Shown in pieces: positions 10,270 to 17,967 of a stretch of DNA of 64,000 nucleotides. The stretch spans positions 14,297 through 78,296 of the forward strand of contig JAEUOS010000179.1 in NCBI GenBank assembly GCA_016790695.1, given 5' to 3'. Both the position numbers and the translations under genes were made by a program. Source of the stretch: Burkholderiales bacterium (GTDB taxonomy: Bacteria > Pseudomonadota > Gammaproteobacteria > Burkholderiales > JAEUOS01). Positions within the stretch are counted from its first letter, which is position 1. Each line of letters opens with the position of its first letter. The notes beneath the pieces were generated by a model, which saw only the letters and a list, made by a program, of their open reading frames with translations, had not been told where the DNA came from and did no database searches.

Positions 10270-11115
10270 ATGGCCATCACCATCAAGACCAAGGAAGACA
10301 TCGCCGGCATGCGCGTCGCCGGCAAGCTCGCCGCCGAGGTCCTCGACTACATCGCGCCGCACGTCCGGCCCGGCGTGACCACCGGCGAGCTCGACCGCCT
10401 GTGCCACCAGTACATGACCACCGTGCAGGGCACCATCCCGGCGCCGCTCGGCTATTGCCCGCCCGGCTACCGCCCGTTCCCGAAATCGATCTGCACCTCG
10501 GTGAACAATCAGGTGTGCCACGGCATCCCCGGCGACAAGGTGCTCAAGAAGGGCGACGTCGTCAACATCGACATCACCACCATCAAGGACGGCTACCACG
10601 GCGACACCAGCCGCATGTTCTACGTCGGCGAACCGTCGATCGCCGCGCGCCGGTTGTGCGAGGTCACGCTGGAGTGCATGTGGGCCGGCATCCTGCAGGT
10701 GCGGCCGGGCGCGCATCTCGGCGACATCGGGCACGTGATCCAGACCCATGCCGAGCGGCACGGGTTTTCCGTGGTGCGCGAGTTCTGCGGGCACGGCATC
10801 GGGAAGCGGTTTCACGAGGAACCCCAGGTGCTGCACTACGGCAAGCCGGGGACCCTGGCCGCGCTCGCGCCCGGGATGATCTTCACCATCGAGCCGATGA
10901 TCAATGCCGGGCGGCGCGAGATACGCGAGCTGGCCGACGGCTGGACCATCGTCACCAAGGACCACAGTCTGTCGGCCCAGTGGGAGCACACGGTTCTCGT
11001 CACCGAGACCGGCTACGAGGTCCTGACGGTCTCCGCCGGCATGCCGGCGATCCCCGCGGCGGCCCTGGCGCTGGCCCCCGCGACCGCCGCCGGCCCCGCT
11101 CCGGCGCACGCCTGA
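10270..11115 (+). CDS. map: Type I methionine aminopeptidase
   Basis: 281 aa: MAITIKTKEDIAGMRVAGKLAAEVL..., with MetAP-like blocks (VVNIDITTIKDGYHGDTSRMF, EFCGHGIG, FTIEPM). Confidence 0.95.
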   Translation: MAITIKTKEDIAGMRVAGKLAAEVLDYIAPHVRPGVTTGELDRLCHQYMTTVQGTIPAPLGYCPPGYRPFPKSICTSVNNQVCHGIPGDKVLKKGDVVNIDITTIKDGYHGDTSRMFYVGEPSIAARRLCEVTLECMWAGILQVRPGAHLGDIGHVIQTHAERHGFSVVREFCGHGIGKRFHEEPQVLHYGKPGTLAALAPGMIFTIEPMINAGRREIRELADGWTIVTKDHSLSAQWEHTVLVTETGYEVLTVSAGMPAIPAAALALAPATAAGPAPAHA

Positions 11116-11136: not shown

Positions 11137-13722
11137 GTGTCTGCGCTTCCCCAGGCGGTCGCGGCCGGGCGCTATCGGCAGGAACTGCAGGCCGGGCGCC
11201 GTGAGCTGTTCGACGCGTTCCACGCCGGCGGCTCGGCGCGGCGCCTGCTCGCGGCCCATTGCCGCCTGGTCGATCGCGTGCTCGCGAGCCTGTGGGTCGA
11301 CGCCGGCATCGGCGAGCGCGCGGCCCTGGTCGCCGTGGGCGGCTACGGCCGCGGCGAGCTCTATCCGGCGTCCGACGTCGACGTCCTGCTGCTGCTGCCG
11401 GAGGATGCCGGCGACGAAACCCGCCATGCCCTCGAGGCGCTGATCGGCCTGTTCTGGGACATCGGCATCGAGGTCGGCCACAGCGTCCGGACCGTTCCGG
11501 AGTGCTTCGCCGCGGCCGCCGCCGACATCACCGTGCAGACCACGCTGATCGAGGCGCGCCCGCTCGCCGGCAGCCGCGCCCTGTTCGCGGCGCTCGAGAC
11601 CGGCACGCGCGCCCGCCTCAACGCGCGCGACTTCTACACCGCCAAGCGCCTCGAGCTCGAGCAGCGCCATACCAAGTACCAGGACACGCCCTACAGCCTC
11701 GAGCCGAACTGCAAGGAGAGTCCCGGGGGACTGCGCGACCTGCAGGTGATCCTGTGGATCGCGCGCGCCGCCGGACTCGGCACCAGCTGGAGCGAACTCG
11801 CGGCCCGCGGCGTGATCACGCGCACCGAGGCGGCGATGCTGGGAAAGCGCGAAGCCCTGCTGCAGACCATCCGCGCCCGGCTGCACCTGATCGCCGGGCG
11901 CCGCGAGGACCGCCTGCTGTTCGACCACCAGGACCGGCTCGCCGCCAGCTTCGGCTACAGCGCCACCGCGTCGCGGCGCGCCAGCGAGCAATTGATGCAG
12001 CGCTACTACATCAACTGCCGCTGGATCATTCAGCTCAACACCATCCTGCTGCAGAACATCGCCAACCAGCTGTTCCCCGGCGCCGCCTTCGAGGCGCATC
12101 CGCTCAACGAGCGCTTCCACGTCGAACGCGACATGCTGGCGGCGAGCGACCCGACGGTCTTCGAGACCCACCCGGGCGCGCTGCTCGAATGCTTCCACCT
12201 GCTGCAGCAGCACGCCGAGCTCAAGGGCATGACCGCGCCGACCCTGCGCGCGCTCTGGCGCGCGCGCAACCGCATGGACGCCGCCTTCCGGCGCGATCCC
12301 GGCAACCGGGCGATGTTCATGCAGATCCTCCGGAGCCCGCGCGGGCTCGTGCACGAACTGCGCCGCATGAACCAGTGGGGCATCCTCGGACGCTACCTGC
12401 CGCCGTTCAAGCGCATCATCGGGCAGATGCAGCACGACCTGTTCCACGTCTACACGGTCGATCAGCACATTCTCACCGTGGTCCGCAACGTGCGGCGCTT
12501 CACCATGCTGGAGTTCGCCCACGAGTATCCGATGTGCTCGCGGCTGATCGCCAGCTTCGAGCGTCACTGGCTCATCTACATCGCCGCCCTGTTCCACGAC
12601 ATCGCCAAGGGCCGGGGCGGCGACCACTCCCTGCTCGGCCGCGCCGACGCGCGCGCGTTCTGCCGGGCGCACGGCATCGACCGCGAGGACACCGAACTGG
12701 TGGTCTTCCTGGTCGAGCACCACCTGACGATGTCGTCGGTGGCACAGAAGCAGGACCTGTCGGACCCGGACGTCATCGGCCGCTTCGCCGCGGTGGTCCG
12801 CGACGAGCGGCGCCTGATCGCGCTGTACCTGCTGACCGTCGCCGACATCCGCGGCACCAGCCCGAAGGTGTGGAACGCGTGGAAGGGCAAGCTGCTCGAG
12901 GACCTGTTCCGCGCCACCCGGCGGCTGCTCGGAAGCAAGGCGCGCGGCGGCGCGTTCAGCTTCGACACCGACCTGCAGGAGAAGCAGGCGGAGGCGCTGC
13001 GCATCCTGTCGCTCTACGGATTCTCCCCTTCCGCCCACGAAGCCCTGTGGCGCCAGCTCGACATGGCGTATTTCCTGCGGCACGACGCGAAGGAGATCGC
13101 CTGGCAGACGCGCGCCCTGGTCGCGCGCATGGACTCGCCCGAACCGGTGGTGCGCGCGCGCTTCTCGCCGATCGGCGAGGGGCTCGAAGTGATGGTCTAC
13201 GTGCGCGACCAGCCCGACCTGTTCGCACGCATCTGCGGCTTCTTCGACCGGCGCAACCTGACCATTCTCGACGCCAAGATCCACACCACCCGCAACGGCT
13301 ACGCCCTGGACAGCTTCCTGGTCATGGATGCCGGCGGCGAGGAGGCCGCGCCGCACGGCCAGCCGGCCGAGATCGAGCGCGACCTGCGCCAGGCCCTCGC
13401 CCTGCGCGCCCCGCTGGCCGACCCGGTGACCGGTCGCGTGTCGCGCCAGGCCCGGCACTTCGCCATCGAGCCGGCGGTCAACATCCGCCCGGACGAGAAG
13501 GGCCAGCGCTACATCCTGTCGGTGACCGCCGGCGACCGCCCGGGCCTGCTGTACCGGATCGCCCTGGCGCTGTCGCGCCACGGCGTCAACCTGCAGACCG
13601 CGAAGATCACCACGCTGGGCGAGCGCGCGGAGGACGTGTTCCTGATCGAGGGCGGCGATCTCGGCAACCCCAAGTCGGTGCTCGCCATCGAGACCGACCT
13701 GGTCGACACGCTGCGCCGATAG
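11137..13722 (+). CDS. glnD: Bifunctional [protein-PII] uridylyltransferase/uridylyl-removing enzyme
   Basis: 861 aa with a nucleotidyltransferase motif (GGYGRGELYPASDVDV), an HD domain (LFHDIAKG) and two C-terminal ACT-like repeats. GTG start. Conserved map-glnD adjacency. Confidence 0.94.
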   Translation: MSALPQAVAAGRYRQELQAGRRELFDAFHAGGSARRLLAAHCRLVDRVLASLWVDAGIGERAALVAVGGYGRGELYPASDVDVLLLLPEDAGDETRHALEALIGLFWDIGIEVGHSVRTVPECFAAAAADITVQTTLIEARPLAGSRALFAALETGTRARLNARDFYTAKRLELEQRHTKYQDTPYSLEPNCKESPGGLRDLQVILWIARAAGLGTSWSELAARGVITRTEAAMLGKREALLQTIRARLHLIAGRREDRLLFDHQDRLAASFGYSATASRRASEQLMQRYYINCRWIIQLNTILLQNIANQLFPGAAFEAHPLNERFHVERDMLAASDPTVFETHPGALLECFHLLQQHAELKGMTAPTLRALWRARNRMDAAFRRDPGNRAMFMQILRSPRGLVHELRRMNQWGILGRYLPPFKRIIGQMQHDLFHVYTVDQHILTVVRNVRRFTMLEFAHEYPMCSRLIASFERHWLIYIAALFHDIAKGRGGDHSLLGRADARAFCRAHGIDREDTELVVFLVEHHLTMSSVAQKQDLSDPDVIGRFAAVVRDERRLIALYLLTVADIRGTSPKVWNAWKGKLLEDLFRATRRLLGSKARGGAFSFDTDLQEKQAEALRILSLYGFSPSAHEALWRQLDMAYFLRHDAKEIAWQTRALVARMDSPEPVVRARFSPIGEGLEVMVYVRDQPDLFARICGFFDRRNLTILDAKIHTTRNGYALDSFLVMDAGGEEAAPHGQPAEIERDLRQALALRAPLADPVTGRVSRQARHFAIEPAVNIRPDEKGQRYILSVTAGDRPGLLYRIALALSRHGVNLQTAKITTLGERAEDVFLIEGGDLGNPKSVLAIETDLVDTLRR

Positions 13723-13779
13723 CCGCGCCGCGCGCCGTGCGCGGCACCGGCGCGACGCTGCCGGTTCCGCCGCGCGGCG

Positions 13780-14514
13780 TCAGGAACGCCAGTACCCGGG
13801 CTCGGGCAACTCGTTGAACACCTTCTTGAGCTGCTCGGCCCAGCGGCCGCGGATCGAGGCGAAGTACTCGTCGCGCGAGTCGATCAGCTTGTGCTTGGTG
13901 ACCTTGAGGGCGTCGCGCTCGTAGCACATCAGGTCGAGCGGCAGGCCGACCGAGAGATTGGACTTGATGGTCGAATCCATCGAGATCAGCGCGCACTTGG
14001 CCACCTCCTCGAGCGACAGGCCGCCGCCGATGACGCGATCGAGGATCGGCTTGCCGTATTTCGACTCGCCGATCTGGAAATACGGCGTCTCGTCGGTCGC
14101 CTCGATGAAGTTGCCGGGCGAATAGACGTTGAACAGCCGCGGCTCCTCGCTGCCGACCTGGCCGCCGAAGATCAGGCTGACGTTGAACTCGATGCCGAAC
14201 TCCTTGAGCGACTGGGCGTCGCGCGCATAGACCTTGCGCACCGCGTCGCCGACCAGCTTGGCGGCCGAGAACATGTTCGGGCAGGACGCCAGGCTCTTCT
14301 CCCCGGGATTGCCCATCTGTGCCTTCAGGCCCGATGCCACCGCCTGGCTCACGGCGAGGTTTCCGGCCGTCAGCAGGACCATCACGCGCTCGCCCGGCAC
14401 CTCGTAGATGTGCATCTTGCGAAACGTGCTGATCTGGTCGACGCCCGCGTTGGTGCGCGAGTCGGACAGGAACACCAGCCCCGCCTGATTGCGGATGGCC
14501 ACGCAGTAGGTCAT
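13780..14514 (-). CDS. Anbu-type proteasome-like Ntn peptidase (proteasome beta-subunit homologue)
   Basis: MTYCVAIRNQAGLVFLSDSRTNAGVDQISTFRKMH... Thr2 would become the N-terminal nucleophile once Met is removed. About 244 aa from the ATG at 14514. Sits next to alpha-E and cp-ATP-grasp genes, which is the Anbu operon context. Confidence 0.8.
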   Translation of the reverse strand: MTYCVAIRNQAGLVFLSDSRTNAGVDQISTFRKMHIYEVPGERVMVLLTAGNLAVSQAVASGLKAQMGNPGEKSLASCPNMFSAAKLVGDAVRKVYARDAQSLKEFGIEFNVSLIFGGQVGSEEPRLFNVYSPGNFIEATDETPYFQIGESKYGKPILDRVIGGGLSLEEVAKCALISMDSTIKSNLSVGLPLDLMCYERDALKVTKHKLIDSRDEYFASIRGRWAEQLKKVFNELPEPGYWRS

Positions 14515-14582
14515 GGAATCTTCCCGGAAGCCGGTTCGCCGCGCGGTCGCCCTGCCCTCCCGCGCGCGGACCAAAGTAACGG

Positions 14583-14588
14583 ATTCTA
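14583..14588 (-). promoter_or_regulatory. Candidate -10 element TAGAAT(CC) upstream of the Anbu gene
   Basis: The minus strand reads cTAGAATCC in the 99-nt alpha-E/Anbu spacer, about 70 nt upstream of the ATG at 14514. The same octamer recurs upstream of three other genes (see findings). Confidence 0.3.
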
Positions 14589-14613
14589 GCCGCGCGCGGC
14601 GGCGCCTCCGGCC

Positions 14614-15558
14614 TTACTGCACCGGCACCAGGAAATCGCGCGCGATGCCGTTGCCGATGCCGGCGATGGCGCCGAGGAAGTCGGTCAGGTAGGCGTGGAC
14701 GCCCACCTGCAGGATGTCCTCGATGCGTCCGTAGCGCAGCCGCGAGTACGCGAGCCCGGCCTGGCGCTGGGTCTCCTGCGAGCGCGCGTTCGCCACCAGG
14801 CCCAGGATCTGGTGCACCTCGCGCAGGCAGGCGTGCAGCGAGCGCGGCATGTCCTCGCGCAGGATCAGCAGCTCGGCGACCCGGTTCGGGCTGACCACGT
14901 CGCGATACACCTTGCGGTAGATCTCGAACGCCGACACCGAACGCAGCAGGGCGCTCCATTCATAGTACTCGTTGGTCGACGACTCGGCCGGCGCCAGTTC
15001 GTCGTACTTGACGTCGAGGATCCGCGCGGTGTTGTCCGCGCGCTCGAGGAACGTGCCGAGGCGGATGAAATGGAAGGCCACGTCCTGCAGCATGGTGCCG
15101 ACGGTGACCCCGCGCGAGAGGTGCGAGCGGAACTTCACCCATTCGAAATACTTGGTGAGCTCGCTTCCCTCGATCGCGCCGGACGCCAGGTGCGCCACCG
15201 CAGACCGCCCTTCCAGCCAGGTGGTGTTGATGGTCTCCCAGACTTCGGAGGTGACGGTGCCGCGCACCGCGTGGCAGTTCTCGCGCGCCGCCTTCAGGCA
15301 GGCCGGCAGCGAGGACGGATTGTCGACGTCGAGCGCCATGAAGCGCAGGACCGCCTGCGCCTCGATGCTGTCGCCATGGCGCGCCCGGAACGCGCCGTCC
15401 AGTCCGGTGATGCCCAGGGCCGCGCCCCAGTACCCGCCCGATGCGCCGGGCATCTGCAGCGACATCCGGTAGGTCACGTCGAGCAGGCGCGCCAGATTCT
15501 CGGCGCGCTCGGTGTAGCGCGCCATCCAGTAGAGGTGGTCGGCGGTGCGCGAGAGCAT
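14614..15558 (-). CDS. Alpha-E domain protein (DUF403 family)
   Basis: MLSRTADHLYWMARYTERAENLARLLDVTYRMSL... is the typical alpha-E N-terminus. The start is the ATG at 15558, 2 nt after the stop of the upstream ATP-grasp gene. Confidence 0.85.
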   Translation of the reverse strand: MLSRTADHLYWMARYTERAENLARLLDVTYRMSLQMPGASGGYWGAALGITGLDGAFRARHGDSIEAQAVLRFMALDVDNPSSLPACLKAARENCHAVRGTVTSEVWETINTTWLEGRSAVAHLASGAIEGSELTKYFEWVKFRSHLSRGVTVGTMLQDVAFHFIRLGTFLERADNTARILDVKYDELAPAESSTNEYYEWSALLRSVSAFEIYRKVYRDVVSPNRVAELLILREDMPRSLHACLREVHQILGLVANARSQETQRQAGLAYSRLRYGRIEDILQVGVHAYLTDFLGAIAGIGNGIARDFLVPVQ

Positions 15559-15560
15559 GC

Positions 15561-17000
15561 TCAGTCCTCCAGCACCCAGGTGTCCTTGGTGCCGCCGCCC
15601 TGCGACGAGTTGACCACCAGCGAACCCGCCTTGAGCGCCACGCGCGTGAGCCCGCCGGGCGCCATGCGCACCGTCTTGCCGGAAAGCACGAACGGCCGCA
15701 GGTCGATGTGGCGCGGCGCGATCCCGGCCTCGACGAACGTCGGGCAGGCCGACAGCGCCAGCGTGGGCTGGGCGATGTAGGTGTCGGGCGCCGCCTTCAC
15801 GCGTTCCCGGAAGGCCGCGATCTCGGCGGCGGTCGACGCCGGCCCCACCAGCATGCCGTAGCCGCCCGCGCCATGGGTCTCCTTGACCACGAGCTCGGCC
15901 ATGTTGGCCAGCACGTACGACAGCTCGTCGGGCTTGCGGCATTGCCAGGTCGGCACGTTGGCCAGGATCGGCTCCTCGGAAAGGTAGAAGCGCACCATGT
16001 CCGGCACATAAGGATAGATCGACTTGTCGTCAGCCACGCCGGTGCCGATCGCGTTCGCGAGCGACACCCGGCCGGCCCGGTACACCGAGAGCAGGCCCGC
16101 CACGCCCAGCACGGAGTCGGACCGAAATGCCAGCGGGTCGAGGAAGTCGTCGTCGATGCGCCGGTAGATCACGTCGACGCGCCGCGGCCCCTGGGTGGTG
16201 CGCATGTACAGGGTCTCGTCCTGGACGAACATGTCCTGGCCCTCGACGAGCTCGACACCCATCTGCTGCGCGAGGAATGCGTGCTCAAAGTACGCGCTGT
16301 TGTACGCGCCCGGCGTCAGCACCACGACCGTGGGATCGTCGATGCCCGCCGGCGCCGCCTGGCGCAGCGTGTCGAGCAGGAGGTCGGGATAGTGCTCGAC
16401 CGGCGCCACCGCGTAGCGCGAGAACAGTTCCGGGAACAGGCGCATCATCATGCGCCGGTTCTCCAGCATGTACGACACGCCCGAGGGCACGCGCAGGTTG
16501 TCCTCGAGCACGTAGTACAGGGCGCTGTCGGGCGTTTGTCCGGGCAGCGCGGCGCGCACGATGTCGATGCCGGAAATCAGCGCGTAGAGGTGATTGCGCA
16601 CCGCGATGTCCTGCATCTCGGGACGGTATTGCGCGTTGCGGAATACCTGCTCGGCCGGAATCAGGCCGGCCTTGACGATGCGCTGCGCCGAATAGATGTC
16701 GTGCAGGAAGGCATTGAGCGCGGCCACGCGCTGCCGCAACCCCCGCTCCAGCATGCGCCACTCGGCCGCCGGGATGATGCGCGGCAGGATGTCGAACGGG
16801 ATCAGGCGCTCGGTGCCGGATTCCTCGCCGTATACGGCGAAGGTGATGCCATGGCGGTGAAACGCCGAGTCCGCCTCCTCCCGCTTTTGCGCGATCGTCG
16901 TCGCCGCCACGGTATCGAGCCACGCCTGATACGACGCATAGTGGTCGCGCACGCACCCGTCTGGTGCGTGAAACTCGTCGAAAATGTTCGTCATGACCAT
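15561..17000 (-). CDS. Circularly permuted type-2 ATP-grasp protein (DUF404/DUF407 family)
   Basis: About 479 aa from MVMTNIFDEFHAPDG... (ATG at 17000 or 16994). I recognise the family from blocks such as VVLTPGAYNSAYFEHAFLAQQMGVELVEGQD and SQGGGTKDTWVL. Precedes the alpha-E gene. Confidence 0.85.
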   Translation of the reverse strand: MVMTNIFDEFHAPDGCVRDHYASYQAWLDTVAATTIAQKREEADSAFHRHGITFAVYGEESGTERLIPFDILPRIIPAAEWRMLERGLRQRVAALNAFLHDIYSAQRIVKAGLIPAEQVFRNAQYRPEMQDIAVRNHLYALISGIDIVRAALPGQTPDSALYYVLEDNLRVPSGVSYMLENRRMMMRLFPELFSRYAVAPVEHYPDLLLDTLRQAAPAGIDDPTVVVLTPGAYNSAYFEHAFLAQQMGVELVEGQDMFVQDETLYMRTTQGPRRVDVIYRRIDDDFLDPLAFRSDSVLGVAGLLSVYRAGRVSLANAIGTGVADDKSIYPYVPDMVRFYLSEEPILANVPTWQCRKPDELSYVLANMAELVVKETHGAGGYGMLVGPASTAAEIAAFRERVKAAPDTYIAQPTLALSACPTFVEAGIAPRHIDLRPFVLSGKTVRMAPGGLTRVALKAGSLVVNSSQGGGTKDTWVLED

Positions 17001-17109
17001 CTGAAGTGCATCCCGCCCTACAAGGAGCCAAACAAAGCAAGCGTCATGCCGCTTCGCCGACCGAAAGCCGGATTCCGGACCGGCCGTCGCCCCGCGCGGG
17101 CGCGCGCCG

Positions 17110-17916
17110 TCAGGAGATTCCCAGCACGTCGCGCATGCTGAACAGGCCGGAGCCGCGGCCGCGCAGGAACCGGCACGCGCGCAACGCGCCCTGCGCATAG
17201 GTCGCGCGACTCGATGCCTTGTGGGTGATCTCGACCCGCTCGCCGTCGCCGAGGAACATCACGGTATGGTCACCGACCAGGTCGCCGCCGCGAACGACGG
17301 CGTAGCCGATTGCGTCGGCACGCCTGGCCCCGGTGTGGCCGTGGCGGTCGAACACGGCGACCGCGTCGTGATCGCGTCCGAGGCCGCGCGCCGCCGCCTC
17401 ACCCATGCCCAGTGCGGTGCCCGAGGGCGCGTCGACCTTGTGGCGATGGTGCGCTTCGACGACCTCGACGTCGTAGCCCGGGCCGAGCGCACGTGCGGCG
17501 GTTTCGACAAGCTGCATGGCCAGATTGACGCCAACGCTGAAATTGGGCGCGAACACCACGCCGACCTCGCGTGCCGCGGCCGCGATCGCCGCCTTGCCGG
17601 CAGCGTCGAACCCGGTCGTGCCGACCACCGCCGCGACGCCCAGCCGACGGCAGGCAGCCAGATGGGCCAGCGTGCCCTCGGGGCGGGTGAAGTCGATCAG
17701 AACGTCGGCGCCGGCAAGCGCGGCCGCCACATCGTCGGTGACCAGGACGCCGCTGGCGCGGGCGAGGAACGCGGCACAGTCCTGTCCATGGGCGGGTGAT
17801 CCGGCCACGTCCAGCGCGCCCGCGAGCGCGCAGTCATCGCTCGCGAGCACGGCCTCGACGAGCATGCGTCCCATGCGCCCGCCCGCGCCGGCAACCACCA
17901 CCTTGATCCGATCCAT
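17110..17916 (-). CDS. dapB: 4-hydroxy-tetrahydrodipicolinate reductase
   Basis: [19 protein letters not shown]... and the [15 protein letters not shown] motif. Start is the ATG at 17916. Confidence 0.94.
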
Positions 17917-17967
17917 CGTTCCGGCCTCCTCGTCCGGCTGGCTGCGCGTGCGCTCAGGTCGGCGCAC

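Follow-up and report, generated by a model that had tools for sequence, protein, structure and literature searches.

A three-gene Anbu-type operon without a transglutaminase-like gene in an uncultured Burkholderiales bacterium

Introduction

Whether an operon encoding Anbu, a widespread proteasome relative whose role to our knowledge has stayed unsolved nearly two decades after its discovery, can function without the transglutaminase-like (TGase) gene that normally belongs to it is the question raised by a 64,000-nucleotide stretch of DNA from a Burkholderiales bacterium (contig JAEUOS010000179.1 of assembly GCA_016790695.1). On the minus strand of this stretch, hereafter the window, an Anbu-type operon (13780-17050; coordinates of the operon and its flanks are positions within the window) comprises three intact, co-directional open reading frames (ORFs) and an upstream promoter-like element. 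In order, the ORFs encode a circularly permuted type-2 ATP-grasp ligase (cpATPgrasp), an alpha-E domain protein and Anbu.

Anbu operons consist predominantly of four genes, encoding an ATP-grasp protein, an alpha-E protein, a TGase-like protein and Anbu, in an order that is kept across phyla (PMC6376114), and their genes are sometimes unlinked (PMC3235984). In 2021 it was written of Anbu that "no function is known" (PMC8665760), and our search for newer literature on Anbu function found nothing later than that paper. We argue here that an uncultured, Comamonadaceae-related member of the Burkholderiales has in this locus a functional Anbu-1 operon from which the TGase-like gene has been deleted, a reading to which we assign a probability of about 0.7.

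Repeated loss of the TGase gene

We surveyed 80 species-representative loci that encode relatives of the window's Anbu, a sample biased towards Burkholderiales (nearly all are Burkholderiales or other Betaproteobacteria), and mapped the cpATPgrasp, alpha-E and TGase genes on each. Eight contigs were too short for classification. Among the 72 informative loci, the canonical order alpha-E, TGase, Anbu was found in 28, alpha-E directly beside Anbu with no TGase gene between them in 18, Anbu without ligase genes directly upstream in 20 (mostly from Limnohabitans), and other arrangements in six. The TGase-less group consists of L001, L006, L010 and L011 together with 14 further species, and includes the complete reference genome of Candidatus Accumulibacter phosphatis (L037). 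Within Burkholderiales, operons of this three-gene type are common.

The nearest relatives of the window encode Anbu proteins 86-95% identical to its own and share the synteny map-glnD / Anbu … dapB-(bamE)-fur, with the dapB…glnD arrangement kept in L001-L011; they differ from one another solely at the junction between the alpha-E and Anbu genes. In L002, L003, L004, L005 and L007, whose Anbu proteins are 94-95% identical to that of the window, this junction holds a gene for a 270-residue protein with Bact_transglu_N and Transglut_core domains. In L001, L006, L010, L011 and the window it is a spacer of 87-192 nt. Horizontal insertion of the operon was also considered and is ruled out by the unremarkable GC content and skew together with the conserved synteny.

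In a neighbour-joining tree built from the three concatenated proteins, the TGase-less operons fall in at least seven scattered positions. Inside the window's clade there are three of these, held by L006, by L001 (the sister of TGase-bearing L002) and by the window. The tree of the TGase proteins is congruent with this operon tree, which indicates that the TGase gene was inherited vertically and lost repeatedly rather than recently inserted. The neighbourhood comparison across Burkholderiales that an earlier reading of the bare DNA letters (the sequence-only reading) had proposed turned up a frequent form that has arisen by repeated loss, which makes the window's locus an unexceptional example of a system already known. 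That reading had treated the missing TGase gene as a mark of difference; the absence is real, but with 18 of the 72 informative loci alike it does not set the window apart.

An intermediate state is also represented. The operon TGase genes of L004 (1445-2263 of that locus) and L007 (9044-9865) have lost the codon for the nucleophilic cysteine, which is replaced by serine (TCG) in the former and by alanine (GCA), along with a Q-to-R exchange, in the latter; the catalytic histidine and aspartate are kept in both. The ratio of nonsynonymous to synonymous substitution rates (dN/dS) between these two nucleophile-less genes is 0.135, which suggests that a non-catalytic role was retained before the gene was lost outright. 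Their loss of the nucleophile is a reason to think that this clade can do without TGase catalysis. The comparison as a whole indicates that the window's lineage does not need the catalytic activity of the operon's own TGase, although a paralogue may supply the function in trans.

Within the window's clade the TGase is the least constrained gene, with dN/dS of 0.13-0.21, against 0.02-0.04 for Anbu and 0.03-0.08 for alpha-E over the same genome pairs. Against relatives overall, the ratios are 0.03-0.18 for cpATPgrasp, 0.03-0.26 for alpha-E and 0.02-0.19 for Anbu; in TGase-less pairs they are 0.06-0.18, 0.06-0.26 and 0.05-0.19, respectively, and between L010 and L011, which both lack the TGase gene, all three genes fall at 0.057-0.059. 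The three retained genes are under strong purifying selection. No column of the Anbu, alpha-E or cpATPgrasp alignments has a derived residue that is common to the operons without TGase.

A TGase gene is likewise missing from the window beyond the operon. A profile hidden Markov model (HMM) of seven operon TGases and tblastn, run over all six frames of the 64 kb, gave no significant match, the best being a 78-residue stop-to-stop fragment at E 0.02. Nor is a TGase domain hidden in the three ORFs, all of which are filled by their own family domains. The alpha-E/Anbu spacer of the window (14515-14613, minus strand), occupied by the ~270-residue TGase gene in sister genomes, measures exactly 99 nt, as had been read from the letters. 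Comparison of this spacer and those of L001, L006, L010 and L011 with the TGase-bearing intervals (blastn-short and tblastx) yielded chance-level matches only, and with no TGase remnant in any of these spacers the deletion junction is beyond reconstruction. The window's spacer has no Rfam match at E<=1, and its predicted RNA fold is not unusual (z-score 0.07).

The three retained genes

The Anbu gene (13780-14514, minus strand) encodes a 244-residue proteasome beta-like N-terminal nucleophile (Ntn) threonine hydrolase that starts MTYCVAI. The protein scores above the cut-off of the Pfam Proteasome family (E 9e-6), and at E<=0.01 it matches nothing in the PDB except Anbu chains, aligned over residues 1-240. 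E values run from 1e-67 to 1e-77 for the solved chains 5NYJ (2e-77), 5NYF, 5NYW and 5LOX, and the consensus-designed Anbu-1 (5LOY) reaches 6e-96. Alignment to the solved chains continues almost to the C-terminus (residues 238-240 of 244). In the sequence MTYCVAIRNQAGLVFLSDSRTNAGVDQISTFRK, T1, D17 and K32 (Thr1 numbering) align to the same residues of 5LOY and 5NYJ, which places threonine at the N-terminal nucleophile position as the sequence-only reading had supposed; of the Thr1/Asp17/Lys33-type triad that it anticipated, the first two residues stand and the lysine lies at 32. All five S1 pocket residues (T20, F30, T48, L52 and S55) are identical to those of Pa-Anbu (compared with PMC5666114). 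Judged from its sequence, the protein is of the Anbu-1 subtype and not the basic-pocket Anbu-2. Starting instead at an in-frame TTG 60 nt further upstream (14574) would lengthen the protein by 20 residues; this extension is not conserved in relatives, so the start is taken to be the ATG at 14514, from which Thr1 would be exposed by removal of the initiator methionine alone, with no propeptide, in line with what is reported for Anbu.

The cpATPgrasp gene (COG2308; 15561-17003, minus strand) encodes 480 residues, with a second possible ATG at 16997; the operon boundary had earlier been set at 17000, slightly off either start codon. Its product matches Pfam CP_ATPgrasp_2 (E 2e-163) over model positions 1-374 of 374, as well as CP_ATPgrasp_1 (E 1e-149), and aligns nearly colinearly over residues 4-480 with the structural-genomics entry 3N6X (E 8e-212). 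Its ligase activity is a prediction.

The alpha-E gene (COG2307; 14614-15558, minus strand) has its ATG 2 nt past the cpATPgrasp TGA, as had been noted before, preceded by a GGAGGA Shine-Dalgarno sequence, and is probably translationally coupled to cpATPgrasp. Its 314-residue product matches PF04168 over its full length (E 4e-96; residues 1-310, model positions 1-294 of 294), and two ER motifs, E17-R18 and E172-R173, show no variation across 43 homologues. An AlphaFold2 model is confident and all-alpha, with a predicted local confidence score (pLDDT) of 85.8; a Foldseek search with this model found no structural relative in the PDB at E<=0.001, template-modelling (TM) scores being 0.3 or less, and a sequence search of the PDB gave no match. 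The assignment of both ligase-side genes by full-length family profiles, and of Anbu by Pfam and PDB, bears out the three-gene order first read from the letters. A search of NCBIfam with the cpATPgrasp, alpha-E and Anbu proteins matched no family.

Promoter-like elements

A sigma-54-type -24/-12 element (c-GGCAT-gacgc-TTGCT; 17036-17050, minus strand) lies 33 nt upstream of the cpATPgrasp ATG and is a predicted promoter. The pattern GGCAY-N5-TTGCT has this single match on both strands of the 64 kb, where 0.12 would be expected by chance, and the element has the GG…GC dinucleotide spacing of the TGGCAC-N5-TTGCW consensus. About 20 related loci have this element at the corresponding position, amid intergenic DNA that is otherwise poorly alignable. 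The conserved element is a new observation of this analysis, and it fits what has been published on homologous clusters, which are controlled by nitrogen limitation and NtrC: in B. cenocepacia, a DUF404/407-DUF403-TGase cluster is sigma-54 dependent, and mutation of ntrC lowers its expression 6- to 9-fold (PMC5491218); in P. putida, growth on nitrate rather than ammonium induces PP_2685 (Anbu) and PP_2688 (cpATPgrasp) about 16-fold (PMC8050072), and their strong induction on a poor nitrogen source is also attributed to Hervás 2008 as cited in PMC3235984; and in Bradyrhizobium an RpoN site is predicted ahead of a CP_ATPgrasp gene (PMC13207237). The relatives have in common, ahead of the -24 element, a repeat resembling GGCGCA/TGCGCC that is missing from the window, and we therefore make no claim of an NtrC-type upstream activator site.

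The spacer ahead of Anbu carries a TAGAAT hexamer (14583-14588, minus strand), 74 nt upstream of the Anbu ATG, that could be the -10 of an Anbu-specific promoter. The sequence-only reading had picked out this element as a peculiarity of the spacer; it is present, but it did not come with the rearrangement, the whole clade having inherited it. All 10 loci of the window's clade, whether or not they keep the TGase gene, have a TAnAAT hexamer 39-78 nt ahead of the Anbu ATG; where the TGase gene is present, the hexamer lies within the TGase-Anbu spacer. Outside the clade only seven of about 70 other loci have it. There is no consistent -35 element with TAnAAT across the clade, and a scanning tool called no sigma-70 promoter in 13600-17300, so that an Anbu-specific promoter is plausible but unproven.

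Genomic context

The operon is flanked upstream by dapB (17110-17967, minus strand; Pfam DapB_N and DapB_C) and downstream by the convergent glnD, encoding the PII uridylyltransferase (11137-13722, plus strand; Pfam GlnD_UR_UTase, HD and ACT). Its position between these two core genes had been presented as noteworthy; the flanks are confirmed by Pfam, and in the window's clade the site is a conserved, ancestral one that is kept with or without the TGase. The convergent stops of glnD and Anbu are 57 nt apart (13723-13779), and the GC-rich, partly palindromic interval between them (CGCCGCGCGGCG) may be a shared bidirectional terminator, although no T-run terminator was called there. Further along, map (10270-11115, plus strand; Peptidase_M24), 2.7 kb from Anbu, encodes a methionine aminopeptidase, the enzyme class that would expose the Anbu Thr1; because the gene belongs to the conserved rpsB-tsf / map-glnD core synteny, its nearness to Anbu is probably coincidental.

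Some related loci exhibit variations of their own. In L035 (7293-8993), and also in L036, L038 and L039, a gene for a 566-residue diguanylate cyclase with tetratricopeptide repeats (TPR) and a GGDEF domain is located between cpATPgrasp and alpha-E in a TGase-less operon, which hints at a link to cyclic di-GMP signalling in that lineage. In the Methyloversatilis group (L045, L046, L048, L049, L053, L058 and L059), the nucleophile motif of the operon TGase reads GCSAD, not GVCQD, the cysteine having moved by one position with serine in the usual cysteine column. In L056-L080, mostly from Limnohabitans, Anbu (57-59% identity) has neither cpATPgrasp nor alpha-E directly upstream; in L067 and L077, the ligase genes are found downstream of Anbu or on the opposite strand.

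Discussion

On our reading of the locus, the sigma-54 promoter would drive the operon under nitrogen limitation, probably via NtrC as in the homologous clusters, and the clade-specific TAnAAT element may add separate expression of Anbu. The cpATPgrasp protein, with alpha-E as its partner, would use ATP to convert a carboxylate to an acyl-phosphate and join it to an amine in an amide bond; the Yersinia ATP-grasp protein does release phosphate from ATP (PMC6376114). Anbu would act as a Thr1 hydrolase, forming an open-ring dodecamer by homology with Pa-Anbu, which assembles in this way and to which the proteasome inhibitors MG132 and epoxomicin attach covalently (PMC5666114), and would cut peptide or amide bonds in the turnover of proteins or peptides during nitrogen starvation. 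The TGase-like cysteine peptidase would be an accessory part, inactivated or lost in some lineages and possibly replaced in trans by a paralogue.

Several points weigh against this reading. The neighbour-joining tree carries no support values, and dS values of 0.6-1.0 are near saturation, so that the timing and number of the losses are approximate. The sigma-54-type element departs from the consensus at two non-core positions (CGGCAT versus TGGCAC) and overlaps a weak 5-bp hairpin with a T-rich tail that a scanning tool lists as terminator-like, although the hairpin is not conserved in relatives. Within the window we found no rpoN gene, no enhancer-binding protein gene or signature motif, and no recognisable conserved upstream activator site. 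Amide ligation is a prediction, and published work found neither peptidase activity of Anbu in vitro nor a stable complex with its operon partners (PMC6376114, PMC5666114).

The alternative that survives best holds that the operon still depends on a TGase encoded elsewhere, the window showing a relocated or split four-component system; it would modify rather than replace the reading given above, and we regard it as a serious possibility that nonetheless falls short of an even chance. Valas and Bourne encountered no genome with Anbu that was wholly without TGase domains, and remarked that unlinked genes usually belong to the same regulon (PMC3235984). The likely source would be a second, nitrogen-regulated cluster found in many Burkholderiales, comprising a TGase+DUF2126 gene, a cpATPgrasp paralogue and a TGase gene, which adjoins the Anbu operon in seven of the 18 TGase-less loci (L019, L020, L026-L028, L030 and L033). 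In L020 (82-7365) it includes a gene for a 1189-residue TGase + DUF2126 "amidoligase", and we liken it to the NtrC-regulated I35_5080-83 cluster of B. cenocepacia. Neither the window nor the ±10 kb surroundings of the other 11 TGase-less loci contain a TGase-family gene, however, and the second cluster has an ATP-grasp protein of its own, 31-35% identical to the window's cpATPgrasp, and so may be a separate system. The nucleophile-less TGases of L004 and L007 also count against a continuing need for this catalysis.

In L008, L009, L013 and L014 the second cluster is inverted between the ligase genes and Anbu, which lies 8 kb away from them. These four loci favour another explanation, that Anbu is a general protease, serving nitrogen starvation or housekeeping, which works apart from the ligase pair, and that their co-location reflects shared regulation only. 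So do the 20 loci, from Limnohabitans and others, without cpATPgrasp or alpha-E directly upstream, the clade-specific TAnAAT element ahead of Anbu, the lack of a detected physical complex, and the preference of Fuchs et al. for a degradative role (PMC6376114, PMC5666114). We nevertheless consider it rather unlikely, as the adjacency of alpha-E and Anbu was kept after TGase loss in at least seven separate lineages and gene order is conserved across phyla (PMC6376114).

A bolder proposal extends the reading of a functional operon. There are clusters with a TGase only (Burkholderia), with both TGase and Anbu (Pseudomonas) and with Anbu only (the window and 18 other species), and the ATP-grasp/alpha-E pair might be the invariant core, with TGase and Anbu as interchangeable or redundant hydrolase partners. 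In that case the three-gene form would be a minimal, self-sufficient, nitrogen-starvation-induced module that ligates and then hydrolyses. We hold this to be speculative, with the odds well against it. If it were true, such operons would be the simplest natural system for finding the substrate of Anbu, with a logic analogous to that of the Pup-proteasome.

That the cluster is merely a decaying remnant, as the loss of the TGase nucleophile and then of the gene within one clade and the alpha-E dN/dS of 0.13-0.26 between the window and its relatives (above that of some other pairs) might suggest, is largely refuted and very improbable, given three intact, full-length ORFs with catalytic and invariant residues kept, dN/dS far below 1 even between TGase-less genomes, and the persistence of the three-gene form in 18 species.

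The interest of the locus lies in a natural series within one clade, in which the TGase is first intact, then without its nucleophile and then deleted, while the ligase, alpha-E and Anbu are constrained throughout. This series argues against models that need the operon's own TGase, such as one in which Anbu feeds substrates to it, and makes the three-gene operons the simplest material for reconstitution. The conserved sigma-54-type element would in turn link an uncultured lineage to the nitrogen-limitation response of Pseudomonas and Burkholderia.

Comparison with known systems

The closest known system is the canonical four-gene Anbu operon of P. putida (PP_2688-2685), P. aeruginosa and Yersinia bercovieri, with which the window shares gene families, order and strands, the Anbu-1 subtype, and an identical catalytic triad and S1 pocket. 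Regulation of the nitrogen-limitation type has been measured in Pseudomonas (PMC8050072) and is predicted in the window. The difference lies in the third gene, encoding the ~270-residue Bact_transglu_N + Transglut_core protein, whose place is taken in the window by the 99-nt spacer.

The I35_5080-5083 cluster of B. cenocepacia (cpATPgrasp, alpha-E, TGase and a large TGase/DUF2126 protein) shares the cpATPgrasp and alpha-E pair with the window, is sigma-54/NtrC dependent (PMC5491218), and has homologues that adjoin some TGase-less Anbu operons, as in L020. It encodes two TGase-family proteins and no Anbu, the reverse of the window, and the ATP-grasp paralogues of the two systems are 31-35% identical.

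More distantly, HslV/HslU and the 20S proteasome have in common with Anbu the Ntn fold, a Thr1/Asp17/Lys33-type active site and self-association into ring-like assemblies, whereas Anbu has no AAA+ partner gene and no propeptide, carries a C-terminal H5 helix, and assembles into a split ring that stays open instead of closing into a barrel (PMC5666114, PMC8665760). The likeness to the Pup-proteasome (PafA, Dop and 20S) is a functional analogy only, that of an ATP-dependent amide ligase encoded with an Ntn threonine protease; the ligase folds are unrelated, the window has no gene for a tag protein, and tagging in the Anbu system is a proposal. Set beside these systems, the window adds no new kind, and its value is the more modest one of a loss series that marks the TGase as accessory and of a conserved sigma-54-type element ahead of an otherwise familiar operon.

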